A stretch of 64,000 nt of DNA from Oceanococcus sp. HetDA_MAG_MS8 (GCA_019192445.1 JAHCMK010000006.1:91246-155245); one strand, 5' to 3'; shown: positions 20,502 to 63,707, counted from the first letter of the stretch. Notes: a model not told the origin generated them from the sequence alone. Program-made: numbers and translations.

Positions 20502-20577
20502 GGGGCTATAGCTCAGCTGGGAGAGCGCCTGCATGGCATGCAGGAGGTCGGCGGTTCGATCCCGCCTAGCTCCACCA
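20502..20577 (+). tRNA. tRNA-Ala (anticodon GGC)
   Basis: 76 nt, GGGGCTATAGCTCAGCTGGGAGAGCGCCTGCATGGCATGCAGGAGGTCGGCGGTTCGATCCCGCCTAGCTCCACCA. Cloverleaf folds by eye. G3:U70 Ala identity pair is present, the anticodon loop is AT-GGC-AT, and CCA is encoded. Confidence 0.95.
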
Positions 20578-20596
20578 AGCGTGAAAACAGTTTTAG

Positions 20597-20672
20597 GTCC
20601 CCATCGTCTAGAGGCCTAGGACACCGCCCTTTCACGGCGGCAACCGGGGTTCGAATCCCCGTGGGGACGCCA
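20597..20672 (+). tRNA. tRNA-Glu (anticodon TTC)
   Basis: 76 nt, GTCCCCATCGTCTAGAGGCCTAGGACACCGCCCTTTCACGGCGGCAACCGGGGTTCGAATCCCCGTGGGGACGCCA. Near-identical in layout to E. coli tRNA-Glu. The anticodon loop is CT-TTC-AC and CCA is encoded. Confidence 0.95.
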
Positions 20673-20681
20673 TATAAAGAC

Positions 20682-20710
20682 AAACCCGCCTTGTGCGGGT
20701 TTTTCTTTAT
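20682..20710 (+). terminator. rho-independent terminator of the tRNA operon
   Basis: ACCCGC (20684-20689), loop CTTGT, GCGGGT (20695-20700), followed by TTTTTCTTTAT. Confidence 0.8.
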
Positions 20711-21753
20711 CTGCGAACCGTACCGACCAACGCAAAGCTCAGACGTTCGACCAGTTGGTGCGAAAACCGTACCGGACGCCATGCTTGCCCTTCGCCACGG
20801 TGAGGCTCAGACTCCCCAGCCCTCTGAGGGCTTCGGTACGTGAAAACCTTTCAGACGCGATATGTGCTCTGCTTATTCCAGAGTTTCCCTATTAACAAGG
20901 TTTTCAAGCCAGGCTAAGTATTTTTGCGCACTTTCTTCTTGGCCATTACGCCAAAGGCACGGGCGGAGTACCTTCTAATAAGTGGCCCAAATCGCTGTGG
21001 AACAGCAAGTATCCAGCACGGCTCAGCACGGGCAAAGCCCGAAAATTGATCCCCCACCCTTGAGAAGGGCATATATGGCCTGATAGAGAACACTCGCGCG
21101 GGGTGGAGCGCACATCAACTTCAGGAAGCTTAAAAAAACCGAAGATAATCGCATTGTCCCCCAATGTGAGGAGTGTCCACCAAGCCGCACGGGATTTCGT
21201 GACGTAGCACAACGCGTGTCTAGGTGGCCACAGCTCCCAGCCCAAAGGCATGCTGGCCAAGGCCTAGAGACTCATTATCGCAACCTCATATGCAATCCGA
21301 TATTGCGTCGCTGAGTTGCAGTTCGTCAGACGCTGGATCAGCACTTTAAAGGTGCTTCCTCACTGTCGAGTTCTTTGCCATCCCGCTTGCTTGAAGGTCT
21401 GGCTTAGCACACTATGCCTTTCACTTATAGCAAGTTGCCAAGGCCGAGGGGCTACTCAAATGAGCCCTTTAGGATTGTTTGCAGTCTTACGCGATGGTTC
21501 GATATGACACAGATGAGCGAGTGATCAAATGTCATAAGCGATGGCCAGCCAAAGCCTGCAAGGCATACTGCAGACGAATTCCTTACCGCGTCACTGCGGC
21601 GCAAAAGACGGCAGGATAGTTTAGGGCAGATAATCATTGCGTTCGCTGCAGCTGAACTCCGTGCATAGCAGATTGATGCAGCGCCACGTTGCTTTGAGTG
21701 CCTTAAGTCGGCAGAATTGCGGCAAACGCATGTACACATGACAGGAAGGACAC

Positions 21754-22785
21754 ATGCAACAGCTCTCCAAGTGGGCGCAGGTTTTTTTCGCCCTTGCGGT
21801 CCCAACCTTGGTTTGGGCTGAGACAACGGTGGGTGAAGTAGAGCGGCTTTCGGGCCGAGCGACTGTCGTCCGGCAGGCCAATACGGTAGATGCCATCACC
21901 GGATTGGCACTCTTTCAGGCTGACAAGCTTTCAACAGGCCCCGCGTCAACAATTTACGCCAGCTTGTTGGACGGCTCTAAGCTCGTACTAGGCGCAGACT
22001 CTGAATTAGTCCTTAGACAAGTCATCTACGATGCTGATCGCCCCCAAGATGGCCGTGTTTCCTTATTGCTACGACTCGGTGAGCTTGAGATGACTACCGG
22101 GGACGTTGCCGAATCGGGTGGACAAGTCATTCTTTCCACGCCCTTTGGAGATATTTACGCGAGCAATACCACCTTCCAAGTGTCTCTTAATGAGGGAAAC
22201 GGTGGCCCTGTGCTAACAGTATCGAATGGGGCAGGCCAGCTGGAGATTCGGCGGGATGGGGTGGTGACCACGATCCCAAGTAATTCAACGCTAAGAGTCA
22301 ATGATGGAGGACCAGTAAGGGTAGAGGCGGGTCCTGAGCCCAGAGATAACCTATTCTTTGATGCCGGCCCCGATACCTTAGATCGCATTGAGGCGGTGCC
22401 CACTCAGGCCCCAAGCCCTACAGACCCTCCCGGCCCCTCACTAACGCCCACACCCTCACCAACGGCATCGCCGTCACCGTCGGTTACGCCCACGCCTGCG
22501 CCAACTACATCACCGTCGCCTTCGCTCACGCCTACGCCTGCGCCAACGACATCACCGTCGCCTTCGCTCACGCCTACGCCTGCGCCAACGACGTCACCGT
22601 CGCCCTCACTCACCCCTACACCTGCACCAACGACATCACCGTCGCCTTCGCTCACGCCTACGCCTGCGCCAACGACATCACCGTCGCCATCGCTCACCCC
22701 TACACCTGCACCAACGACATCACCGTCGCCATCGCCATCGCCACCACCGCCGACAACAACCCCAACGCCACCAAGCCCGTTTTAA
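21754..22785 (+). CDS. secreted FecR-domain protein with C-terminal Pro/Thr/Ser tandem-repeat tail
   Basis: 343 aa. Signal peptide [24 protein letters not shown]. FecR-like segment [15 protein letters not shown]....[40 protein letters not shown]. About 7 copies of [14 protein letters not shown] follow, ending [14 protein letters not shown]. Confidence 0.75.
22438..22737 (+). repeat. about 7 tandem copies of a 42-bp (14-codon) in-frame repeat
   Basis: The unit ACGCCTACGCCTGCGCCAACGACATCACCGTCGCCTTCGCTC is repeated head-to-tail with only a few, mostly synonymous, differences. The first copy ([14 protein letters not shown]) and the last are more diverged. Confidence 0.9.
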
Positions 22786-22853: not shown

Positions 22854-24029
22854 GTGATGCAACACTCTCGTATCGTTCATCTAGCAGTGGCAGTGTGGTG
22901 CTGCACACCGCTTACAGCCTTCTCTGCCCCGCCCGTAGATTTGGATGTAGCGCTGTCTTCTGTAGCGGTGGTCAACGACAACTTCTACAGCCGCGACATC
23001 AACTCTCAGAACGTAACAGGCGCGATCGTAACTCCGACTATTCGCTTACTACGCGCTGGCGCTCAGTTCAATAACTCTCTCCTGCTCAGTGCCAGCGGGG
23101 GAGCTTTCAATAGCTCGAGTGAAGACAGCTTTTTAGATTACTTGGCAAGTGCCAATTCTTTGTGGAGAGGCGGCTACCAATCAGTCGAAGTCAATGCGGC
23201 ATATCAACGCGGTCACGACCCTTTTGGGGAGGTGCGCACAGAGGGAGATGATTCTGAGAACCGCCAGCTTGACCTTTGGACGGAGGCCAGGGGCCGGCTG
23301 AAATGGCGGCGAGACGGTCAAATCAGGGGAAGTGCATTTACTGAAGTCGATCTCAGTTTTTTTGAGAGAAACTACACCACAAACGAAGAGATAACGGCGT
23401 TTCTCAACCGCGAGGGTTACACCGCCGGAGCAATCATCGGTCTTAACTTAACGGCAAAAACAGGCGTCTTCACCAACCTGACCTATAGCGCTCTTGACTT
23501 CGAAAATGAAGTAGGTCAGTTTTTACGCTCGGGTGACACCACTGCCGGCCTACTCGGAGTTCGGTGGCAAGCGACCGCGCGGACTTCGGGAGATGTTCGC
23601 CTGGGGTATGCAGAACGTTCAGATGACTCTGGGTTTTCCCTAGAGGCGAGCTATTGGAGCGCAGAGATAACCATTCAACCCACGGCCACAGACTCGGTCC
23701 GTGTCGCTACGAATCGCACCTTCGATGCAAGCTACTTCTCTGGAACCGCATTTTTCGACTCCATGAACCATCAACTTTACTGGGAACGGAACTGGAACGA
23801 ACGCTTTGTAGTCACTTTAGGTGGAGAGTTCAGAGAGCGTGAATTTATCCGTAGCGGAACCAGTGATGGAGACGATTTACTCCTTGCACAGTTCCGTGCT
23901 GAGTACACGCTGGATCGCGGCTTTTCCGTTTTCGGTCGGGTGCGGTATGTGGAACGTGAAGCGACTGCAGACACCCGCGATTTCGACGCCAGTCTTGTAG
24001 AACTGGGTTTCGACGTGAGCCTTAATTAA
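22854..24029 (+). CDS. outer-membrane beta-barrel protein of the polysaccharide export module
   Basis: 391 aa. Signal peptide ...TPLTAFSA/PP. Repeated amphipathic beta-hairpin patterns (RFVVTLGGEFREREF, LLLAQFRAEYTLDRGFSVFGRVRYVERE, LVELGFDVSL). Located directly upstream of the OPX gene. Confidence 0.6.
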   Translation: MMQHSRIVHLAVAVWCCTPLTAFSAPPVDLDVALSSVAVVNDNFYSRDINSQNVTGAIVTPTIRLLRAGAQFNNSLLLSASGGAFNSSSEDSFLDYLASANSLWRGGYQSVEVNAAYQRGHDPFGEVRTEGDDSENRQLDLWTEARGRLKWRRDGQIRGSAFTEVDLSFFERNYTTNEEITAFLNREGYTAGAIIGLNLTAKTGVFTNLTYSALDFENEVGQFLRSGDTTAGLLGVRWQATARTSGDVRLGYAERSDDSGFSLEASYWSAEITIQPTATDSVRVATNRTFDASYFSGTAFFDSMNHQLYWERNWNERFVVTLGGEFREREFIRSGTSDGDDLLLAQFRAEYTLDRGFSVFGRVRYVEREATADTRDFDASLVELGFDVSLN

Positions 24030-24053: not shown

Positions 24054-24635
24054 ATGCAACTCGAGCATCCTATTGCGAGAGCACTCATGGCTTTGGCTCT
24101 TATAGCTTTGAGTGCCTGCGCAGACACACCCACTTTGCCGCAAGACACCGTACTTCGGTTGGCCACGCCATTCAGTGCTACCAATTACCTCATATCACCC
24201 ACCGATACAGTACGAATTGACGTCTATCGGGAACCCGACCTCAGCGGCGAGTACTATGTAGACCCTTCGGGAACGATCAATTTTCCTCTGCTCGGGAGGG
24301 TTGGAGTTGCTGGCGAGACAGTCTCTGCGCTTGAAAATAAACTCAGGCTTTCATTGAGCCAAGGCTACCTTGTTGATCCCGATGTTCGGGCTTCAATAAG
24401 TAAGTTCAGGCCAATCTATATCACAGGGGCAGTAGCCAAACCTGGAGCCTACCCGTTCACACCAGGGATGACGGTCCAGCAGGCGATCGTACTCGCTGGC
24501 GGAGAAACTCGGTTTGCCGCCGACCGCTACTACCTCCAACGAAACAACGACTCCACGGACAAACAGCTCCGGATTAGTAATCGTAGCGTGCTATTCCCCG
24601 GGGACGTCATCATTATTGGCGAGCGTGTTTTTTGA
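24054..24635 (+). CDS. short outer-membrane polysaccharide export (OPX, Wza-like) lipoprotein
   Basis: 193 aa. Lipobox LIALSAC. Poly_export motif YLISPTDTVRIDVYREPDLSGEYYVDPSGTINFPLLGRVGVAGETVSALE. One SLBB-like segment (IYITGAVAKPGAYPF..GMTVQQAIVLAGG). It lacks the long C-terminal part of 379-aa Wza. Confidence 0.85.
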   Translation: MQLEHPIARALMALALIALSACADTPTLPQDTVLRLATPFSATNYLISPTDTVRIDVYREPDLSGEYYVDPSGTINFPLLGRVGVAGETVSALENKLRLSLSQGYLVDPDVRASISKFRPIYITGAVAKPGAYPFTPGMTVQQAIVLAGGETRFAADRYYLQRNNDSTDKQLRISNRSVLFPGDVIIIGERVF

Positions 24636-26842
24636 TTAACTCCGGACGACCTCCACGGCCAAGCGAAGATCTTGGAGGCTTCTCGGAAGACCTCCCAGGC
24701 ACCGTCAGCTTATCTGACCTACTGGCGATGGTGCGGAGGAACCTCGTTCTGTTAGCGGGACTTCCTCTTCTTGGTGCATTTGCACTGACCTATCATGCGA
24801 TCTCTCAACCAAAGCTTTATCAGGCCTCGGCCCTATTACAGCTTGACCCTCGTCCGGCGAAAGTACTCGCGCGTGATGATGAATTGTATGATCCAGGGTA
24901 TGAGTCTATTAGTTACTACGGAACGCAGCGCAGGATATTAGAAAGCCGTAAACTGGCATCGCAACTAGCAAAACGGCTTGATTTGGCTGAGCTAGAGGAA
25001 TTTGGTGGGCCAAAATTGCAAGAGCCTCCTAAGTGGTCAACATGGCTTAGCGCACTCCCAGGTCTCCCGGACCCGCCAGAGCCAGAGCCCGTTTCCGAGG
25101 ACAAGCGCTGGGAAAGAACGGTTGCCAGGGTGCAAAATGCAATCTCGGCGCGGCTTGCCCCAACGACCACCTTATTTGAAGTCAACTTTAGCTCCCGTAG
25201 CCCTGAGCTTGCCGCACAAGCTGCGAATGCCCTGTGCGACCTCTATGTAGAAGAGCTCCTACAGGCTCGACTGGATATTTATGCCAAAGCGAATAGCTGG
25301 CTGAACAGCAAGCTAAACACGGTTCAGGGCGACCTTAGTGAGGCAGAACAAGCCTTACAAAGTTTCCGAGATGCCCGCGACATCGTCAATGTCGGAGGTA
25401 ATCGTGGACTTATGGAAAGCGAAGTCACGGATGCTACCCGGCGACTTCGAGAGGCGGAACGAGAGCGTCAGAGACTTGAGAACCTTTACCGAGAGATTCA
25501 ACGGCTTACCCAAGAGGGTGCAGACTTAGGGGGGGCAGAACCTCTGCTTGCAGACCCTGCCTTGCGGCAAGCAGGTCGAGCGTACCTGACTGCACGCGCA
25601 CAACTCGATGAGCTTGAGTCCCGCTACGGCAAACGTCACCCACAATACCTTGCTGCTGAAACACGCTACGAGTCGCTTGAAACAACGTACAAAGAGCAGC
25701 TCGCCTCGAATGCCAGGGGCGTGCTCGCTGAGTTAGAGAGCGCCCGGAATACCGAAGCCCAGCTCCGACGTCAGAAGAGGGAGGTGGAGCAAAAGCTGCG
25801 CTCGCTCGACCGGTCGGAGTTTGAGCTCAATATGCTCGAACGAGAAGTTCGGAGCAACCGCCAGCTATACGATGCCTTCTTAACCCGTTTCCAGGAAACA
25901 GAGAGCAACTCCAGCTTTTCAGAAGCGAACGCACGAATCGCAGATCCTGCTGTACCACCGCGGGGGGCCTATGAGCCAAATGTACGCAAACAGGCCTTGA
26001 CGGGCTTTGCTATTGGAGCCGCGATCGCCCTCTTACTAACACTGTTCCGTGAGACGCTTCGCTTTAAGATTGAGTCACCAGATGAGCTTGAACAACTCTC
26101 GACAGCGCCACTATTGGGTGTGGTCCCGCACTCCAGGGCTCGCCATTTGGATAAACATCTCGTGCAGCATATGCATGATGATGCGCGCTCACCTTTTGCG
26201 GACGCGGTGCGAAGTTTAAAAACAGCCATACTGATGAATAGAGAGGCCGGCGATAAATGTCTTTGTCTCGCCATCACCTCCACAGAACCCGCCGAGGGCA
26301 AATCAACGATCACCACGGCAATGGGCTGTGTATTCGCTGCTAATGCACGCGTTCTCCTCATCGACACGGATCTTCGCAGGCCGAGGTTGGCACGAATTTT
26401 CGGAACTAGCAGTTCGAAAAATCCCGGACTTGCTGACATCCTTCAAGGAAAGTCCAGCTTCGAAAGCGCTGTTCAAACTGACGAGCTGAGCGGTCTCAGC
26501 TTCTTACCCGCTGGGCAGCCCCCCCCGAACCCCGCGCTTCTGCTTGAGTCGACCGCGTTCAAATCTTTAGTGCAATACGTGCGTGAGAGGTATGACTTCG
26601 TATTCTTTGACACTCCTCCAGTCTTGGCGACGAGCGACGCACTCCACCTTGCTGACAGCGTGGACGGATATGTAGTAGTCGCAAGAGCAGAACGCACACA
26701 TAGAAAAGCTTTCGCTGGAGCACTGAAGCGCTTAGATGGGTCAGCAGCTCTCGTACGAGGCACCATCTTGAACGATGCCTCGACCAAGAGAAGTGCTTAT
26801 GGCCAAGGCTACTACTACTATGGGTCAAGTTATAGATATTAA
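24632..26842 (+). CDS. polysaccharide co-polymerase fused to BY-tyrosine kinase (Wzc/GumC-like, PCP-2a)
   Basis: 736 aa. Wzz-type N-terminal TM, a long coiled-coil periplasmic region and a second TM. The kinase has Walker A TSTEPAEGKST, A' LLIDTDLRRP and B VFFDTPPV. C-terminal Tyr cluster YGQGYYYYGSSYRY. The start overlaps the OPX stop. Confidence 0.9.
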   Translation: MINSGRPPRPSEDLGGFSEDLPGTVSLSDLLAMVRRNLVLLAGLPLLGAFALTYHAISQPKLYQASALLQLDPRPAKVLARDDELYDPGYESISYYGTQRRILESRKLASQLAKRLDLAELEEFGGPKLQEPPKWSTWLSALPGLPDPPEPEPVSEDKRWERTVARVQNAISARLAPTTTLFEVNFSSRSPELAAQAANALCDLYVEELLQARLDIYAKANSWLNSKLNTVQGDLSEAEQALQSFRDARDIVNVGGNRGLMESEVTDATRRLREAERERQRLENLYREIQRLTQEGADLGGAEPLLADPALRQAGRAYLTARAQLDELESRYGKRHPQYLAAETRYESLETTYKEQLASNARGVLAELESARNTEAQLRRQKREVEQKLRSLDRSEFELNMLEREVRSNRQLYDAFLTRFQETESNSSFSEANARIADPAVPPRGAYEPNVRKQALTGFAIGAAIALLLTLFRETLRFKIESPDELEQLSTAPLLGVVPHSRARHLDKHLVQHMHDDARSPFADAVRSLKTAILMNREAGDKCLCLAITSTEPAEGKSTITTAMGCVFAANARVLLIDTDLRRPRLARIFGTSSSKNPGLADILQGKSSFESAVQTDELSGLSFLPAGQPPPNPALLLESTAFKSLVQYVRERYDFVFFDTPPVLATSDALHLADSVDGYVVVARAERTHRKAFAGALKRLDGSAALVRGTILNDASTKRSAYGQGYYYYGSSYRY

Positions 26843-26881: not shown

Positions 26882-27460
26882 ATGCTCTTAAAAATTTATG
26901 CCCTCACTATGGTGGCCGCTGCATGCTTTTGGAGCTACAGCGAGATTTTGGAAGCGCAGGAGATGCTTGCCTGGCGCCAGCCGGCAACCGCTCCTCATCC
27001 CATGCAGCTCTCGCCGCTACTAGATGGGCGCCGAATGGCAAATGTAAGCAGGGAAGCGCTTTACACCAGACTTGATCTTGCGGTTCAGGCGCTGGAAGTC
27101 GCGCTGCAATCGGACCCACTGAATCCAGACCTGTGGAGTCTACTCTCGCAAGGATATTTTTACTCCGGCCTGCTTGATCAAGGCAGTATGGCCAGCGAGC
27201 GGGCACTGCAACTCGCTGCGGGCAATAGGATTATCGCCTTGGAACAAGGCGTAGTCGCAGCCGACTTCTTCACAACGGTGAACTCCAGCACTCGGCGGCT
27301 ATGGTCGCAGAATGTGAGCCGCTTGCAGGATGAAGTACCCAATCCATTCCTGCTGCGGCTGATTGGTACCAAAAGGCTAGGGAAGGCTTGTCAGCACTTT
27401 CCTCCGCACGCCAACTTTGCCAAGGCATGTGCAAGAGTACAACGAGAGCTTTCTAAATGA
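26882..27460 (+). CDS. hypothetical membrane-anchored helical protein
   Basis: 192 aa. One N-terminal hydrophobic segment (IYALTMVAAACFW), with the remainder helical/TPR-like (DPLNPDLWSLLSQGYFYSGLLDQ). The stop overlaps the start of the next gene (ATGA). Confidence 0.45.
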   Translation: MLLKIYALTMVAAACFWSYSEILEAQEMLAWRQPATAPHPMQLSPLLDGRRMANVSREALYTRLDLAVQALEVALQSDPLNPDLWSLLSQGYFYSGLLDQGSMASERALQLAAGNRIIALEQGVVAADFFTTVNSSTRRLWSQNVSRLQDEVPNPFLLRLIGTKRLGKACQHFPPHANFAKACARVQRELSK

Positions 27461-28917
27461 GTCGGCGTGTACAACACAGCTGGGCACTTGGAATGTTGGC
27501 ACTGATCATCCTGAGCCTGTCCCGAGGGGGAATGACAGACGCCTCGCAATGTGGCGCAATGATCTTATGCGCTCTTAGCCTCCTGATATGCCCGCGGCCA
27601 CAAAGGGGGTCAATCGACCCCTGGCTTACAATCGCCCACCTTTGCTGGGCCATATGGCTTGCTTGGCAGGTCACCACACTTGTCCCCCTTACAGACGCAT
27701 GGCTTCGCACACTGTCACCGTTCAGTTATCAAGCCTGGCTTGACCTCGGCACACGGGTTACATCGGATAATCCATGGAACAGCATCAGCGTGCGACCCAC
27801 TGAGAGCATGCGGTATTTGCTTTTGTCTGCCAGTTATTATTGCCTCTGGACATCATTCAACTGGCAGCTTAGACAAAGCCCGCAAGTTCTCAGGTGGACA
27901 CTGACGGCAATATCCGTCTTGGGTTTGTTTCATGCCGTCTACGGCACTTTGGCGCATAGCGGGGTGGTTAGCTGGAATTTATTAGAGCCAGCAGGCTACG
28001 TCCACAGCCATTCCGCCCACGGTACATTCGCGAACCGCAACCACTACGCTGCATTTCTAACTCTCTGTGCCTCAGCAACGATCGCAGCGATGCTGGGCAA
28101 CCGACGGCATGACCGCTCTAGCAGTCGGTCTCTAGTCCGCTCAGCCCTGGACTTTCTCAATCAACCCAGCTGGCTATTTCGAGTCGTGTTACTCACCATT
28201 GTCATTGGAATCGTCCTATCACGGTCCCGCATGGGGAATACGTCGTTCGCGATCGCAGCGGGCGTGTTCGGCCTCGCCTGGCTCTTACAAACCACGACCG
28301 TAAAAGAGTTTGTCCGCGTCGGCCTTATCTTCACCAGCATCATTGTCGTTGACATACTAATAATCAGTGACAAGTTCGGACTAGATGTTGTCGTACAGCG
28401 GCTGGAGTCCACGCAACTCGACTCCAGCAATCGTGCGCAAGTGCGAGAAGTCAATCGTGAACTCCTTGCCCGAGCTCCATGGACTGGCACCGGATTAGGC
28501 AGCTATTTTGTCCTCGAGCAAGCAGAACTCAAGCGCTTTGAAGACTGGTTATATATCTACGCTCATGACGACCACACCCAGCTCAGGCTTGAGGCCGGCT
28601 TGCCCGGATATGTGGTCTTAAATTTACTCGTCCTGTGCCATCTCGGCATGGCCGCACGCACATTACGCTCGCGAAGACGGGTCTACAGGGCATCGTCTGC
28701 GGCAACCTTCATGGTGGTCACTGCAGCAGCCATTCATTCCACTGTTGAGTTCAATGCATACATTCCCGCTTGGGCCGCACTGTTCGTTGTAATTCTTGCA
28801 TTGACAACTGCGCCCCCGTCACGGAGAAGATCAAGACGGCCAAATAAAACCATAGACTATAGTGAGGGGGTCCAGCGGCGCGTAATGCCTAAGCCGGCTT
28901 TTGGAACACCAGGATAA
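27457..28917 (+). CDS. Wzy_C (O-antigen ligase/polymerase) family membrane protein
   Basis: 486 aa, polytopic. Family landmarks LSRSRMGNTSFAIA, PWTGTGLGSY and YAHDDHTQLRLEAGLPG (cf. H.HN.YLQ...E.G). Confidence 0.8.
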   Translation: MSRRVQHSWALGMLALIILSLSRGGMTDASQCGAMILCALSLLICPRPQRGSIDPWLTIAHLCWAIWLAWQVTTLVPLTDAWLRTLSPFSYQAWLDLGTRVTSDNPWNSISVRPTESMRYLLLSASYYCLWTSFNWQLRQSPQVLRWTLTAISVLGLFHAVYGTLAHSGVVSWNLLEPAGYVHSHSAHGTFANRNHYAAFLTLCASATIAAMLGNRRHDRSSSRSLVRSALDFLNQPSWLFRVVLLTIVIGIVLSRSRMGNTSFAIAAGVFGLAWLLQTTTVKEFVRVGLIFTSIIVVDILIISDKFGLDVVVQRLESTQLDSSNRAQVREVNRELLARAPWTGTGLGSYFVLEQAELKRFEDWLYIYAHDDHTQLRLEAGLPGYVVLNLLVLCHLGMAARTLRSRRRVYRASSAATFMVVTAAAIHSTVEFNAYIPAWAALFVVILALTTAPPSRRRSRRPNKTIDYSEGVQRRVMPKPAFGTPG

Positions 28918-30358
28918 TGGTTCTCAAAAGAATCCTCATATCCAGCGCTATCGACCAATGTTCGATGTACCACAGGTCAAATTCAAGCCGCCGCTTCATC
29001 TGCTCTGAGCTCCGCACTGGCCCACGGTGACCATTGATTTGGGCGAGCCCGGTCATTCCCGGCAGCACGCGATGCCTGAGCCTGTAACTAGAATCCAAAT
29101 CTGCAGCGGCCTGGTTCATACTCGACTCATGTGGCCGGGGTCCAACGAGGCTCATTTCTCCTCGGATGACGTTCAGTAGCTGCGGTAGCTCATCGAGCGA
29201 CCAGCGACGAAGAAACTCCCCGACTCGCGTGAACCTCGGATCGTTTGGCCGAACCTGACGCATTCTCGTAGCCTCAGGAGCATACCTGAGGGTTCTGAAT
29301 TTAATGATGGAGAAGATTCGGCCATTAACTCCATGGCGATTCTGGCGGAAGAATATTGGCCCAGGACTATCCAAACGAACGGCGATAGCAATCATGATCA
29401 GAATAGGAGAAAGCGCGATGACTCCTAGTGCGGCGCAACACCGATCAAAAACAAGCTTGAATAATCCTCTCAGGCCACGTGCGGGCTGAGGACTCAAGCC
29501 AATAACAACTTGAGTCCCGACATGCTGAATGGCATCGGATAGCACCGTGTAACCGTCTAAGTTGGGAATAAAGCAAACATCGAATAATTCCAAGTGGCTA
29601 GAGTAAAAAAGGTGCTGGAGAACAGTATCTGTAGAAGGTGATTGGAGCACCCAAACTTCGTCGACAGCGTCTACGAAGTCTTTGTTGAGTTTGGAAACCG
29701 CCTGCTCTGCTGTGCCTGAGGACGACAGTCCCGCGACTCGCGAAGCAGGCCCGAAATACGCCACAAAAACGACTTCTTCACCCACGCGTTCGCTAACTTG
29801 AGCGATGACGCTGCGAGCATGGGTAGCTTCGCCTATAAGAGCTACTCGGCGTACTCCCACGCCTTGGCTCAGCAGCCATCTACGGCAGTAAACCAGCAGT
29901 CCCCTAAGGCCCAAAAATCCGAAACATGCACTCAAATACCAAGTGCCCATCCAAAGACGGGAAAATTGAGCAGAGACCTTGAACATCACGGTTAGCACTA
30001 GGGCTGCCGCGAACAGAAGCGACCATCCCACAAGTGCGGTCGTAACTATTCGGTAATCTTGAGCCAAGCCACCAACGTGATATCCACCAAAAACGAAAAT
30101 ACACAGCGGGCTCGCCAACCCCACTAGCGTAATCAGTACGCTGTATTGATCGCGCCCAAGGAGAGCGTGGTCGTGTACAAACTGACCGAGTAGCCAGCTG
30201 CCCGCATAGCCCGTGGCGACCACCATGAGTACGTCCAAAGCGGCTAGGCCAAACATCATCCCTACAATGAACTGTTCGTAACCACTGCGGCTGTTGCGCC
30301 GCCCAAGCGTTTGCGAGCTACGCCCAAAGTTCTCAATTGCCTCTTTGTGGCTAGTCAT
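28889..30358 (-). CDS. polyprenyl-phosphate hexose-1-phosphate transferase (WbaP/large PGT, bacterial sugar transferase)
   Basis: 489 aa. 4-5 N-terminal TM segments and a central domain. The C-terminal catalytic domain carries [49 protein letters not shown] and GMTGLAQ. Confidence 0.9.
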
Positions 30359-39060: not shown

Positions 39061-40350
39061 TTAACTCACTTCACTCCAAAGGCGCCCCTCTTCCGCAGAA
39101 CGCTGCAACACTAGCCTTATCGCCCCAAGTAGCGTCAGGCCAAACAATACACCTACGGTTCTACTGAACAAGCCTGAGTGCGCCCAAAACACGGACCAGT
39201 AGGCGACGTTGGCAGCTATCAAACCCATATAGAAAGTATCTGGTGCAGACATTTTTCGCCATGCAGAAATGACGATCAGATACATAAATGCCATTTGGAG
39301 GGCAAAACTGAAGCACATCACTAAACCACCGGCTTCTAAAAGCTCTAACAAGCGATGATGGGCTTGCCCTATGGTGTGGTATCCGTTGCCCAGTACAGGC
39401 CTTTCCCAAATATCCTCCCACGACTCGGCCTGACGAACTGCCCTTCGATAATCGGAAACTACAGATGAGGCTGCGCCGGAAAGACGGCTGTATGCAGACT
39501 GTGAATCTGGGGCGGGGCCTCCCCGAATGAGCACAGGAGCCAACGCTACGCAAGCGCTTACGAGGATTAGCTTATAGACATGGCTCCAGCGGAAATGACG
39601 GCTCCATAATGAGAAGCACACCACAAAAACTAGGCCGACCACTGGCGCCAAGAGGCTACTGCGCGACCCTGAAAGGTTTGCCGCTGAAAAATTCACGTAT
39701 AGGACCAACAGCCACACCAAGCTACCCATCCAGCTTCTACTTCGAATGAAGAGTACCGATGTTGCCGCCAAAGCCATTGACACATTGAAGCCCAAGCTAG
39801 TCGAGTGCAGTGCCATCCCGGCGAATCTACGGCCTTCATCTTTCGCGTAAGCATCCAGAAGATCTGGCCATAAACCGTTGGCATCCATTACTGCAACAAG
39901 AGCACTCAAGGTGCTTCCAAGGATCCAGGCCGTCACTAACTGCGGTACCACTCGCGGACCACTTGAATACCATTGCACGATCACGAGCGGCACCACGATG
40001 TGGATATAGCTGTACACAATGTACTGAGTGACGTTTTGGCGGTAAGTCGATGAGTTGAGCTCCAATTGCCACAATGCCGTGACCAAACCCAGTATGAGCG
40101 CGACTACCCAAGGCAACGGTAGCCACATCCGACTTGTACTCGCATCTTGCCCGAGAAATTTGACCGCAATCGCTAAACCGATACACAAGTCTGAAATACT
40201 CAGCGCCCCACTGACGCGTAATGACTCGCAAGGAGCGAAAAACACTCCCAGAAAGAGCAACCAAGTTGCTGCCGCGGAAAAGTCAACATACTGCTCCGCG
40301 GACAGTTGTTGCGTTATGCCGGAATAACTCGTGGAGCCTGGATTAACCAC
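39061..40350 (-). CDS. Wzy_C (O-antigen polymerase/ligase) family membrane protein, second copy
   Basis: 429 aa, about 10 TM segments. NLSGSRSSLLAPVV and a periplasmic loop ending ERPVLGNGYHTIGQAHHRLLELLEAGG. Confidence 0.7.
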   Translation of the reverse strand: MVNPGSTSYSGITQQLSAEQYVDFSAAATWLLFLGVFFAPCESLRVSGALSISDLCIGLAIAVKFLGQDASTSRMWLPLPWVVALILGLVTALWQLELNSSTYRQNVTQYIVYSYIHIVVPLVIVQWYSSGPRVVPQLVTAWILGSTLSALVAVMDANGLWPDLLDAYAKDEGRRFAGMALHSTSLGFNVSMALAATSVLFIRSRSWMGSLVWLLVLYVNFSAANLSGSRSSLLAPVVGLVFVVCFSLWSRHFRWSHVYKLILVSACVALAPVLIRGGPAPDSQSAYSRLSGAASSVVSDYRRAVRQAESWEDIWERPVLGNGYHTIGQAHHRLLELLEAGGLVMCFSFALQMAFMYLIVISAWRKMSAPDTFYMGLIAANVAYWSVFWAHSGLFSRTVGVLFGLTLLGAIRLVLQRSAEEGRLWSEVS

Positions 40351-60728: not shown

Positions 60729-62002
60729 ATCTCGGGTCGCTCTCCGCTATGGCTGGTCGACTGCGGCCACCAGATGGAAACATAAAGGCCGCTAAAATGA
60801 AGAAAAAGACGCAGCCAATCTGTTTGCCCATCTAAAACCTCATGTACTGCAGATCGGTTCCCCAGCAAAGCGGGATGCCCATAGTCCTCGCAAACAAGGA
60901 CACTGCCAGGACTCAGGTACTGTTGCGGTATAGCGCGCAACAGGTACTCGGTCGCACGAAAACTGTCACAATCAATAAATGCCATCGCCAACTTTTCAAT
61001 CGGCGCGCTGTCTAATGTCTGAGTAAAGTCACCTTGAATGAGGTGTACTTTCGGCATTTTCTCAAATTTCTTTTGAACCTGAGAAAAATCCACATGGTGC
61101 GTATTTCCCCAGAAGTAATCAACACCACGTTCTTGGGGAAAGCGATCAAAGGTATCGAACAGGAAGACGCGCTTATCAGACCCCAGCAACTCCAAAGTCC
61201 GCGCAATAAGCCAACCACTGTGACCCTGGTAAGAGCCGAACTCTGCGATGTCCCCAGGGATATTCCTCTCTACAACCAACTTGAGTAGTTGGTAGAGATC
61301 CAGAAAATCACGCAGGCCGCACTTCTGTTCAAACAGGCTCAATGACTCTGCATAAATCTCGTGTGGCGTCGGCTTATCCAATAACGCGGGCGAAACGAAA
61401 AAAGTTTCCCGGTATTCGTCATGCGCAGAGAAAAATGGCTGGGCAGCGTCCAAGCCGGCAACATACTCAAACGGAAGCTGAGAAAGAAATGGATGGCGCA
61501 TCACGGCCCGTGCCAACTGGGTTTGCCGCGATGCATCTTGAAACAAGCATAGGACAAGCCTGCACTTTTCCAAGTCATCATCCGTGTCCGTGGCAATGGC
61601 TGCAATATCAGTCTCGCGAACCCTAAGACCGTTTGCTCTCAGGCGAATCAAGACACCACGATGGAAACCATCCTTAGGCCCGCTACACAGCACCCAGGCA
61701 CCAGTATTAACTGCCTCTGGGGGAAGCCGTTGCAAAACCTGCTGCACCAGTGCAGTGGCTCCTTCTTCTTGTCCACGAGCGCCATGCCAGCGCACGCGCT
61801 GAGCAATCGACGAACGACCTAGATAGCCAGCAACGCGGCCACTAATTTTTCCAGAGCGCCAGCGCCATACCCAACGGCTCCACAACAGCGCTGCTGCCCT
61901 AAACACGAACGTTTTTCCCCAAGTTCCGCAGGCTCCGACCCGCCGCGTCCTCGTCTGGAAACAGACTTGAGTAATCGCCTGTGCGGACAATCTTGCCATC
62001 AT
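60725..62002 (-). CDS. methyltransferase (TylF/Methyltransf_24-like C-terminal domain) with an uncharacterised N-terminal region of about 190 aa
   Basis: The C-terminal half carries IAEFGSYQGHSGW, LFDTFDRFP, FIDCDSFRATEY and LVCEDYG. The ATG at 62002 overlaps the upstream ABC gene by 104 nt. The alternative GTG at 61906 overlaps the ABC stop codon by only 8 nt. The start is unresolved. Confidence 0.65.
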   Translation of the reverse strand: MMARLSAQAITQVCFQTRTRRVGACGTWGKTFVFRAAALLWSRWVWRWRSGKISGRVAGYLGRSSIAQRVRWHGARGQEEGATALVQQVLQRLPPEAVNTGAWVLCSGPKDGFHRGVLIRLRANGLRVRETDIAAIATDTDDDLEKCRLVLCLFQDASRQTQLARAVMRHPFLSQLPFEYVAGLDAAQPFFSAHDEYRETFFVSPALLDKPTPHEIYAESLSLFEQKCGLRDFLDLYQLLKLVVERNIPGDIAEFGSYQGHSGWLIARTLELLGSDKRVFLFDTFDRFPQERGVDYFWGNTHHVDFSQVQKKFEKMPKVHLIQGDFTQTLDSAPIEKLAMAFIDCDSFRATEYLLRAIPQQYLSPGSVLVCEDYGHPALLGNRSAVHEVLDGQTDWLRLFLHFSGLYVSIWWPQSTSHSGERPEI

Positions 62003-63707
62003 TAACGATGAAAATTTGATCGCAATCCATCACCGTCGCCATACGATGAGCGATGACAATGACCGTCTTGACGTGGGCCATTTCCATAATCGCTTGATGC
62101 ACCGCTCTTTCGGTGTCCTGATCTAGCGCGCTGGTTGCCTCATCCAGCACGAGCACGTCCGGGTCATGGTAGAGAGCACGGGCTATACCTAAACGCTGCC
62201 TCTGCCCCCCCGACAGGCGAACACCCCGCTCCCCCACAATAGTCGCATAACCATTCTCCATATGAGCACAAATGTGCTCGTGGATTTTTGCAGTTTTGGC
62301 GGCTCTATAGACCGCTTCAATGTTCACCTCCGACGGTGGTACGCCGAAAGCGATGTTAGCGATGACTGTGTCATCAAGCAGGTAAATATCTTGGGGAACG
62401 TAGCCCATATTCGCTTGCCAGGCGTGCCGGTTCTCTTCGGTTATCACCTGGTTATCGACGATCAGCCCCCCTTTCTGCGGTGTCAGTAACCCAAGGATGA
62501 CATCGACAAGCGTTGTCTTTCCCGCACCTGTCGGGCCAACAAAGGCGACAAAACTACGCTTTGCAATATCTACACTGACATCGCTTAGCGCCTTTTTCTC
62601 AGATCCGGGGTAGCTGTAACTCACATGGTCTAGACGCAGACCATGTTCCATGGGCATTCGAGGAGGGTTGGGAGCTCTCCCTCCCTCAGGCCATGTCTGC
62701 GTGAGCTCCAGCGAAATAGACTTCAGCACGGGCGCAGTGTATTTCAGCGTTGTCAAACCCCGATAGATCGACTGGAAAGCGGGCAACATACGGTAGCCGG
62801 CGAATGCAAACGCACTGGCCAATGGCAGGAGCGCAGACAAGTTACGGTCAGCAGCAACAAAGTAGAGCACAACACTTAATAGTGCGCCAAAAGCCAGGGT
62901 CTCAATAAAATAGCGCGGGATCATCCCCAGCAAATGATTCGAGATCACCGAGCGGGAAAACTCTAATGCATGAGGCTGAAATGCGTGCACGAATGCGTCC
63001 TCACGCCCTAGTACCTTGACTTCCTTCAGCCCTCCAAAAGCCTCGTTAACAGCCTTAAGCCGAGCCTTGTTGGCGTCCAGCCTGCGCTGACCCAGACGCT
63101 CCATCCGCCGGCGAAGAACAACATACATCCCACCATAAATGACTGCGAACACGGTGGCTACAAGCAAAACCGTTACCGGGGAAAGCCAACTCAAGAAAAG
63201 CAACATGAAGATGACCATCACGCCCGAGCACGACAACCCTAAAATGATGGCAATCACACCGTGCGTTACCTGTAAGGACTCATTGACAACTGTGGTTGCC
63301 AAATCCGCTGAGTTACTAGCGATGAAGTCAACATAGGGCCGGTGGATGTAATTATGCAGTAGCGTACCCGACAACCTTCTATGAAAGTCATAACAAAACT
63401 TCGTTATCCACCATTGACTCAACATAGCCAGGCTATTGGCCATGATCAGCATCACAAGGATCAGACCCCCAAAAATTAGAGTGAAAGTCTTATGCGAATC
63501 AATACCGGCCAGGTTTGCAAACGATGCAAGCCACCTATTCTCCCAAATCATTTCCGGGCGGGTCAGCATGGAGATGAAGGGAACCACTGAACCAATGCTC
63601 GCGACTTGCACAACGCCGAGTACAGCGGCAAACGGCAAGATCAAAGCAAACTGTTTACGCTCACTATGGGTAAGTAGCAAGCGCAAGTCGCGCACCATAG
63701 ACTTCAT
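61899..63707 (-). CDS. fused TMD-NBD ABC exporter (MsbA/PglK/NdvA-like half transporter)
   Basis: 602 aa. N-terminal 6-TM domain. Walker A GPTGAGKTT, signature LSGGQRQRLGIARAL, Walker B VLVLDEATSALD and H-loop IVIAHR. Confidence 0.9.
   Translation of the reverse strand: MKSMVRDLRLLLTHSERKQFALILPFAAVLGVVQVASIGSVVPFISMLTRPEMIWENRWLASFANLAGIDSHKTFTLIFGGLILVMLIMANSLAMLSQWWITKFCYDFHRRLSGTLLHNYIHRPYVDFIASNSADLATTVVNESLQVTHGVIAIILGLSCSGVMVIFMLLFLSWLSPVTVLLVATVFAVIYGGMYVVLRRRMERLGQRRLDANKARLKAVNEAFGGLKEVKVLGREDAFVHAFQPHALEFSRSVISNHLLGMIPRYFIETLAFGALLSVVLYFVAADRNLSALLPLASAFAFAGYRMLPAFQSIYRGLTTLKYTAPVLKSISLELTQTWPEGGRAPNPPRMPMEHGLRLDHVSYSYPGSEKKALSDVSVDIAKRSFVAFVGPTGAGKTTLVDVILGLLTPQKGGLIVDNQVITEENRHAWQANMGYVPQDIYLLDDTVIANIAFGVPPSEVNIEAVYRAAKTAKIHEHICAHMENGYATIVGERGVRLSGGQRQRLGIARALYHDPDVLVLDEATSALDQDTERAVHQAIMEMAHVKTVIVIAHRMATVMDCDQIFIVNDGKIVRTGDYSSLFPDEDAAGRSLRNLGKNVRV

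Follow-up and report, generated by a model that had tools for sequence, protein, structure and literature searches.

The stretch analysed here, 64,000 nucleotides of Oceanococcus sp. HetDA_MAG_MS8 (GCA_019192445.1, JAHCMK010000006.1:91246-155245; hereafter 'the window'), derives from an environmental, marine lineage of the Oceanococcaceae (Nevskiales) and contains an export operon on its plus strand. The first gene of this operon, an open reading frame (ORF) at 21754-22785 (+), encodes a 343-residue protein made up of a signal peptide, a FecR-fold head, an acidic linker, a disordered stalk rich in proline, threonine and serine, and a C-terminal peptide of the form P-x-S-P-x, to which we refer as the tag (Table 1). 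Behind it follow genes for an outer-membrane beta-barrel, a short lipoprotein of the outer-membrane polysaccharide export (OPX) family, a Wzc-type polysaccharide co-polymerase (PCP), a 192-residue TPR-like protein and a Wzy_C-family protein that we call WzyC1. An earlier note on this DNA had described a secreted FecR-domain protein that opens an export operon and carries no PEP-CTERM, LPXTG or beta-barrel anchor, and this description holds. A signal peptide can be read at the N-terminus, with equivalent hydrophobic N-termini in the orthologues; the predicted mass after its removal is 32.5 kDa, and there is no C-terminal transmembrane helix. An identity as a PEP-CTERM/exosortase substrate can accordingly be rejected, the exosortase family PF09721 being without a match in this 100%-complete genome.

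Table 1. Features of the tag-bearing gene, the export cassette and selected genes of the adjoining glycan island, with positions in the window.
Feature	Position	Strand	Basis or remark
Shine-Dalgarno-like AGGAAGGA	21743-21750	+	3 nt upstream of ATG, read from sequence
Signal peptide, aa 1-22 (…LVWA/ETT, cleavage at the slash)	21754-21819	+	type I by reading of sequence
FecR-fold beta-sandwich head, aa 23-192	21820-22329	+	Pfam, AlphaFold2, Foldseek
Acidic linker ending in D-R-I-E (RIE = 22384-22392)	22330-22392	+	AlphaFold2 pLDDT <50
Disordered Pro/Thr/Ser-rich stalk, aa 214-338	22393-22767	+	composition, AlphaFold2 disorder
42-bp in-frame tandem repeat, 6.6 copies	22459-22735	+	Tandem Repeats Finder score 421
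C-terminal tag P-P-S-P-F-COOH	22768-22782	+	S-P-x conservation in homologues
BBP2_2 outer-membrane beta-barrel (EpsL-like)	22854-24029	+	PF10082, 52.7 bits
193-aa lipoprotein class-3 OPX (Poly_export + one SLBB)	24054-24635	+	Pfam; lipobox LSAC read from sequence
Wzc-type PCP / tyrosine autokinase	24632-26842	+	Pfam, NCBIfam
192-aa TPR-like protein, hydrophobic N-terminus	26882-27460	+	4-nt overlap with next gene
WzyC1, Wzy_C-family protein with HAHND motif	27457-28917	+	PF04932, 41.9 bits
Initiating phosphoglycosyl transferase (WcaJ-like)	28889-30358	-	TIGR03025, 373.6 bits
WzyC2, second, weaker Wzy_C-like gene among glycosyltransferases	39061-40350	-	PF04932, 28.2 bits, below cut-off
MsbA-like ABC protein	61899-63707		within glycan island

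The assignment of the head to the FecR family is borne out by both profile and structure. Residues 57-159 match Pfam model PF04773 with 28.3 bits (E 2.5e-6), which exceeds the gathering cut-off of 24 bits, and in an AlphaFold2 model built on a 10-sequence family alignment residues ~22-192 form an all-beta FecR-type sandwich with a predicted local distance difference test (pLDDT) score above 90, the remainder being disordered. A Foldseek comparison with the PDB matched the head to BDI_1681 (4m0h/4m0n, E 4e-7 to 1.2e-6) and to PupR (6ovk_R, E 1.5e-6), these FecR-type matches covering ~138 aligned columns at a root-mean-square deviation (rmsd) of 2.3-3.6 Å. The N-terminal half of the head also resembles the retention modules of the adhesins LapA and MpIBP. 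Its first ~60 residues align with 5ix9, from the ice-binding adhesin of Marinomonas (its 'cell surface anchoring domain'), over 62 columns at an rmsd of 1.2 Å, and a profile of 14 family heads found 5ix9 among PDB sequences at E 9.8e-6 (this search used heads only, the full-length alignment having given mostly low-complexity matches). The NCBIfam LapA retention-module model NF033682 gave sub-threshold matches in eight of the 14 heads, the best family member reaching E 8e-8 and the window protein 16.8 bits against a cut-off of 50. Membership of the LapA-type adhesins was nevertheless set aside, given this sub-threshold score, the Sec signal and the lack of RTX repeats. The gene is the only one in its genome with a FecR domain, and word-indexed homologue searches returned only the protein itself when the head alone was used, and nine proteins, none of them new, with the family profile.

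Beyond the linker, the tail of the protein (residues 214-343) is 38% proline, 25% threonine and 20% serine (83% together). The low-complexity repeats reported in the earlier note are thus present, but they run to 130 residues and not to the ~115 estimated there. The repeat array encodes five identical 14-residue units (residues 245-314); across repeat units 2-6 the DNA varies at seven sites, every one of them a synonymous third-codon position. Small as these numbers are, such exclusively synonymous variation suggests that the stalk peptide, for all its 'low complexity', appears to be under selection. The stalk is nonetheless not what defines the family. It is restricted to the Oceanococcaceae, where it sits between the R-I-E of the linker and the tag, and the conserved part is the tag itself, on which the note was silent. 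Since the orthologues of Nevskiaceae and Solimonas have little or no stalk, a periplasm-spanning scaffold, one of the roles first envisaged, is hard to reconcile with the family as a whole.

The gene travels with the export genes across the Nevskiales. At 11 of 15 related loci a gene encoding a signal peptide, a FecR-like domain and a Pro/Thr/Ser region lies directly before those for the barrel, OPX, Wzc, the 192-residue homologue and WzyC1, with a phosphoglycosyl transferase on the opposite strand. The same gene also precedes the barrel-OPX-Wzc-hypothetical-WzyC1 series in L025-L031 and on two metagenome contigs, L045 and L047 (carrying P0003 and P0011), while on the short P0004 contig (3.9 kb) nothing beyond the upstream amidase gene and the beginning of its neighbour is covered. 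We then surveyed 151 Nevskiales genomes, in which the barrel was found at 43 loci in 42 genomes, and compared its coordinates with those of FecR-profile matches. A FecR-like gene lies in cis at no fewer than 28 of these 43 loci (at least 28): directly upstream of the barrel at 11, all in Oceanococcaceae, and at 17 on the same strand 5-7 kb downstream, directly after WzyC1. At three loci, from one genus, it is 15-22 kb away; at 11 its position is obscured by contig ends or falls on other contigs; and one locus belongs to a genome with no FecR match. The arrangement after WzyC1 was confirmed in L015 and L034-L036, and in L036 the tag gene overlaps WzyC1 by 4 nt. The FecR-like orthologues are only 20-37% identical to one another, as against E values of 1e-180 to 1e-259 for Wzc and a similarly high conservation of OPX. 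This persistent partnership with the export genes favours two of the roles proposed in the earlier note, a part of the machine or a glycosylation substrate. The co-variation with neighbouring Wzy_C genes that the note proposed to look for is present as linkage of the gene, as the 17 loci directly after WzyC1 attest, but not in the length of the stalk.

What these divergent proteins share is their C-terminus. The motif S-P-x forms the exact end of 28 of 34 cassette-linked proteins and lies within 12 residues of the end in five more, as against 4 of 143 control FecR-family representatives, although relatedness among the cassette-linked proteins inflates the nominal P value of this comparison. 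When 400 other Gammaproteobacteria were sampled, neither the tag nor OPX neighbours were present at any of the 29 best FecR-like loci, which rules out the tag as a general trait of gammaproteobacterial FecR proteins. Neither is it a genome-wide sorting signal, as the full tag occurs once in its own genome. A 195-residue, histidine-rich membrane ORF beside an RND pump, 3.5 kb beyond the window (C17:158794-159381), ends in …APPSPI; it has no similarity to the FecR-like family, and its ending is probably a matter of chance. In the orthologues the tag or tail is often preceded by R-I-E or by a strand of alternating acidic and hydrophobic residues, such as DIDIDIEIEI or DVDLDLQIE. Those encoded after WzyC1, which have little or no Pro/Thr/Ser run, end for example in …DLDLQIEPVASPS, …PPRIEQEPAASPS or …PPPPVSPN; stalk-less forms end in …RIEQEPAASPS or …LQIEPVASPS, and in about half of the latter class the final residue is serine. 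Some orthologues tolerate short extensions beyond S-P-x, which fits a sequon better than a dock that depends on the terminal carboxylate. In the AlphaFold2 model of a stalk-less orthologue the last ~18 residues are unstructured, indicating that the tag is a free peptide outside the fold, and the pLDDT below 50 of residues 202-215 in this short form rules out a tail folded back onto the head. We found no description of a P-x-S-P-x tag in the literature. Judged from its conservation, the tag rather than the stalk is probably the functional element, serving either as a site of sugar attachment or as a docking peptide.

Similar C-termini occur on other heads elsewhere in the Pseudomonadota. In a sample of 401 genomes the barrel profile matched 71, and the best 29 barrel loci were widened; most of these contain the barrel-OPX-Wzc triad, with OPX proteins ending in SFF, RFF or SFW like WzaB of Myxococcus xanthus, and 15 of the 29 carry a WzyC1-family gene at E<1e-70. 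WzyC1 is unusually conserved, reaching E ~1e-119 in other classes. Seven of the 29 loci encode a signal-peptide protein ending in [AGVP]SP[SN], located next to WzyC1 (L152, L153, L159), the barrel (L134-L136) or OPX (L161). Of the 854 ORFs at those loci, 7 have this ending, compared with 1 of 10,647 frames of the Oceanococcus genome. The heads of these proteins consist of alanine-rich helical repeats, or of a FecR domain together with such repeats, so that the FecR head does not seem essential to the role of the family. A similar alanine-rich secreted protein is encoded immediately upstream of WzyC1 at six further loci. At five of these it has a glycine-rich tail that ends in …AVSS, …NAVS, …AVSP, …PASV or …VASNN, and at L154, the sixth, the ending …HALDGG contains no serine. 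Most of the alanine-rich proteins adjoining WzyC1 thus have a glycine-rich stretch followed by a short serine-containing tail. Alanine-rich helical repeats of ~11 residues (AAITTAA.xAP..A) were observed in the secreted proteins beside WzyC1 at L137, L139, L141, L142, L144, L152-L154 and L159.

Within the window, the genes downstream of the tag protein have the features of a class-3 OPX translocon, namely a short lipidated OPX without an outer-membrane helix, an adjacent barrel gene and a PCP/bacterial tyrosine (BY) kinase. The OPX protein has an aromatic C-terminus (…GERVF), and the class-3 OPX proteins of the Nevskiales have a single phenylalanine at their end, in the form ERLF or ERVF. The 192-residue protein has no Pfam match in the window, while its homologue in L045 gives faint matches to TPR_14 and TPR_19. 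The phosphoglycosyl transferase gene converges on the plus-strand operon. We saw no terminator-like site between the FecR-like gene and the barrel gene at 22854, and found no sigma-70-type promoter in the 1-kb leader upstream. Homologues of WzyC2 are present in the related loci, and WzyC1 and WzyC2, both in this island of polysaccharide genes, are the only Wzy_C-like genes of the complete genome; since a separate gene for a WaaL-type ligase did not turn up anywhere else in it, one or the other may act as a ligase. The very large glycan region at 30358-63707 further encodes five GT2, two GT4 and two GT8 glycosyltransferases, several FkbM/TylF methyltransferases, four sulfotransferases, two Acyl_transf_3 proteins and a PhyH dioxygenase, and no Wzx flippase of the Polysacc_synt type was found among its ORFs, all but a few of which were scanned. 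The cassette is preceded by genes for tRNA-Ala and tRNA-Glu, a terminator and a gene-poor leader of ~1 kb (20502-21753 in all), and at this point G+C drops from ~0.60 to ~0.53. In the relatives it is a penicillin-amidase-family gene that precedes the cassette, and this difference in flank means that the cassette has moved or that its flank has been replaced. Elsewhere in the genome, on contig C2 (177.7-183.6 kb), two adjacent genes with Poly_export domains (open frames of 612 and 920 residues) represent a second, different polysaccharide export system.

Taken together, sequence, structure prediction and gene linkage, the foundations of every functional statement made here, make it probable that the protein is a periplasmic accessory of the class-3 OPX cassette, in which a head resembling FecR domains and retention modules presents a free P-x-S-P-x peptide, and that the protein works through this peptide rather than through the Pro/Thr/Ser run. 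More tentatively, and by analogy with the TfpO/TfpM-pilin pairs, the invariant serine of the tag, amplified in the stalk, may accept glycan from WzyC1, a proposal that we regard as possible though short of probable. In such a scheme WzyC1 would transfer the undecaprenyl-pyrophosphate-linked glycan of the locus to the tag serine; tandem duplication in the Oceanococcaceae would have amplified the tag region into a stalk rich in S-P and T-P, and hence into a multi-site acceptor; and the head would keep the glycoprotein at the OPX/barrel complex. There is precedent for the chemistry, in that TfpO and TfpM, Wzy_C enzymes of 420-470 residues, attach glycan to the serine or threonine at the C-terminus of an adjacently encoded pilin, and TfpM transfers long chains (PMC9829042). 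WzyC1 shares the HAHND motif with the ligase WaaL, and a profile of its family finds WaaL (7tpg) at E 5e-12, the match spanning the C-terminal third. The tag gene directly adjoins WzyC1 in 17 Nevskiales loci and several others, and a separate Wzy-like gene, WzyC2, is present among the glycosyltransferases. The proposal also draws on the tolerance of short extensions beyond the tag and on the stalk itself, an array rich in S-P and T-P that appears to be under purifying selection.

Several observations weigh against glycan transfer to the tag. The window protein ends in phenylalanine and its invariant serine (S341) is at position -3, whereas TfpO and TfpM use the terminal residue, and in the Oceanococcaceae the gene is four genes removed from WzyC1 and adjoins the barrel instead. 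WzyC1 could also be no more than a repeat-unit polymerase: sequence comparison does not separate ligase, polymerase and O-oligosaccharyltransferase in its case, its only solved relative is WaaL at the E value just given, and the PglL_A domain is not matched in it. The fetched DNA around the WzyC1 cassettes of L032, L043, L156 and L157 contains no tag protein. In the phylum-wide sample, tag and WzyC1 co-occur at 5 of 15 loci against 1-2 of 14 without a detected WzyC1, a difference that is not significant, and the counts overstate the support as a whole because related genomes are not independent. Finally, the same type of machine offers a precedent for a C-terminal peptide that docks, the Phe-Phe motif of WzaB (PMC12819527).

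That precedent leads to the strongest of the rival explanations, in which the protein would be a non-covalent docking adaptor. Here the head would sit on the periplasmic face of the barrel or the OPX protein, the tag and the amphipathic R-I-E strand would dock into another partner from the cassette (the barrel rim, Wzc, the TPR-like protein or WzyC1) so as to stabilise or gate the translocon, and the Pro/Thr/Ser run would be a flexible tether. WzaB, a class-3 OPX protein, has been shown experimentally to dock its porin through a C-terminal S-F-F (PMC12819527), and the OPX proteins of the cassettes described here end in ERLF, ERVF or SFF; the tag, however, is small and polar, unlike these aromatic docks, and it tolerates extensions. 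In 11 Nevskiales loci, and likewise in L134-L136, the gene immediately precedes that of the barrel. Domains of the FecR fold bind domains of outer-membrane proteins, as in PupR-PupB (6ovk), and the LapA/MpIBP retention modules that the head resembles sit at an outer-membrane pore (bioRxiv 10.1101/198937). The alternating acidic and hydrophobic strands before the tag suggest beta-augmentation, and a TPR-like protein is conserved in the cassette. Against this, a single fixed geometry is difficult to reconcile with a tether whose length ranges from 0 to 130 residues, and the purely synonymous divergence of the stalk repeats would be unexpected for a mere spacer. We consider docking somewhat unlikely as the explanation, with the proviso that it and glycan acceptance are not mutually exclusive.

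An extension of glycan acceptance, in which the polymer would be covalently anchored, seems improbable. In this case WzyC1 would ligate the polymer onto the serines and threonines of tag and stalk, the unfolded, glycosylated tail would be threaded through the BBP2_2 barrel, and the head would act as a periplasmic stopper, much as LapA is held in its TolC-like pore. Were this so, the capsule or exopolysaccharide would be protein-primed and pore-retained, and the tag would be a portable signal for polymer attachment carried on FecR-like or helical heads in many phyla.

A periplasmic sensor or regulator, in which the head would sense the state of exporter or polymer and relay it to Wzc or to gene expression, was among the roles first suggested and is more improbable still. 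The FecR domain and the position of the gene at the head of its operon speak for it. Set against these are the absence of an anti-sigma N-terminal domain, a transmembrane helix and an STN-binding C-terminal domain (PF04773 is the sole Pfam match), the fact that this is the only FecR-domain gene of the genome, and the presence of the tag on helical heads unrelated to FecR. FecR-type anti-sigma signalling was consequently rejected as an identity, its defining parts being missing: DUF4880 gives no match, the FecR domain beginning right after the 22-residue signal peptide, and nor does FecR_C/DUF4974. No sigma factor or TonB-dependent transducer was identified in context, although no systematic genome-wide search for them was made. 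Least probable of all is that this is a dispensable, fast-evolving passenger, a secreted low-complexity protein without a specific role in export and linked to the cassette by shared ancestry alone; the low identity of the orthologues beside Wzc, the variable length and sequence of the stalk and the relatedness of the genomes would all agree with this, but the linkage outlasts a change of gene order (before the barrel or after WzyC1) and is found in several families, the tag shows both conservation and specificity, and the repeats differ only synonymously.

Among polysaccharide exporters the class-3 OPX systems have been called the most widespread, and the published model of them has three parts (PMC12819527). 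The cassettes described here add a recurring fourth component, encoded next to the barrel or the Wzy_C gene, whose defining trait is a short C-terminal tag that is portable between interchangeable heads. Its presence bears on how the end of a polymer passes from a Wzy_C enzyme to the outer-membrane pore and on the way in which these polymers remain bound to cells. Should the tag prove to be a site of O-glycosylation, it would constitute a new, short sequon with its own dedicated Wzy_C enzyme, a kind of pair that is of practical interest for bioconjugates.

The export module itself is a member of the known class of composite OPX/barrel translocons. Like the WzaB-WzpB-WzcB and EpsY/EpsX systems of M. 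xanthus (PMC9601211, PMC9603273, PMC12819527), it combines a short lipoprotein OPX that has no outer-membrane helix and ends in an aromatic residue with an adjacent, dedicated barrel gene and a Wzc-type PCP. Unlike the three-part M. xanthus system, it is accompanied by the tag-bearing secreted protein and a conserved Wzy_C gene; FecR is not mentioned in those three accounts. As with the TfpO(PilO)-PilA and TfpM-pilin pairs (PMC9829042), a Wzy_C-family protein of similar size is encoded at a number of loci beside a secreted protein whose conserved feature is a serine close to, or at, the C-terminal end of an exposed peptide, but the candidate acceptor here is not a pilin, its invariant serine at -3 is followed by proline, and in the window the two genes are four apart. 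With the periplasmic domains of FecR and PupR (PF04773; 6ovk, 4m0h) the head shares its beta-sandwich; the protein is a member of the FecR-domain family and not a FecR-type regulator, since it has none of the anti-sigma N-domain, transmembrane segment and STN-binding subdomain of those anti-sigma factors. Over its first ~75 residues the head is homologous to the LapA/MpIBP retention module (NF033682; 5ix9; bioRxiv 10.1101/198937), and both share a layout in which a folded stopper stands ahead of a long, extended chain, although the window protein would be exported by the Sec route and has no RTX repeats, type I secretion signal or LapG site. Lastly, in composition and predicted disorder the stalk is akin to the O-glycosylated Pro/Thr-rich linkers of secreted glycoside hydrolases and mycobacterial glycoproteins, from which it differs in its lineage-specific occurrence, in having no mannosyltransferase-type system implicated, and in its placement between a conserved R-I-E and a terminal tag.

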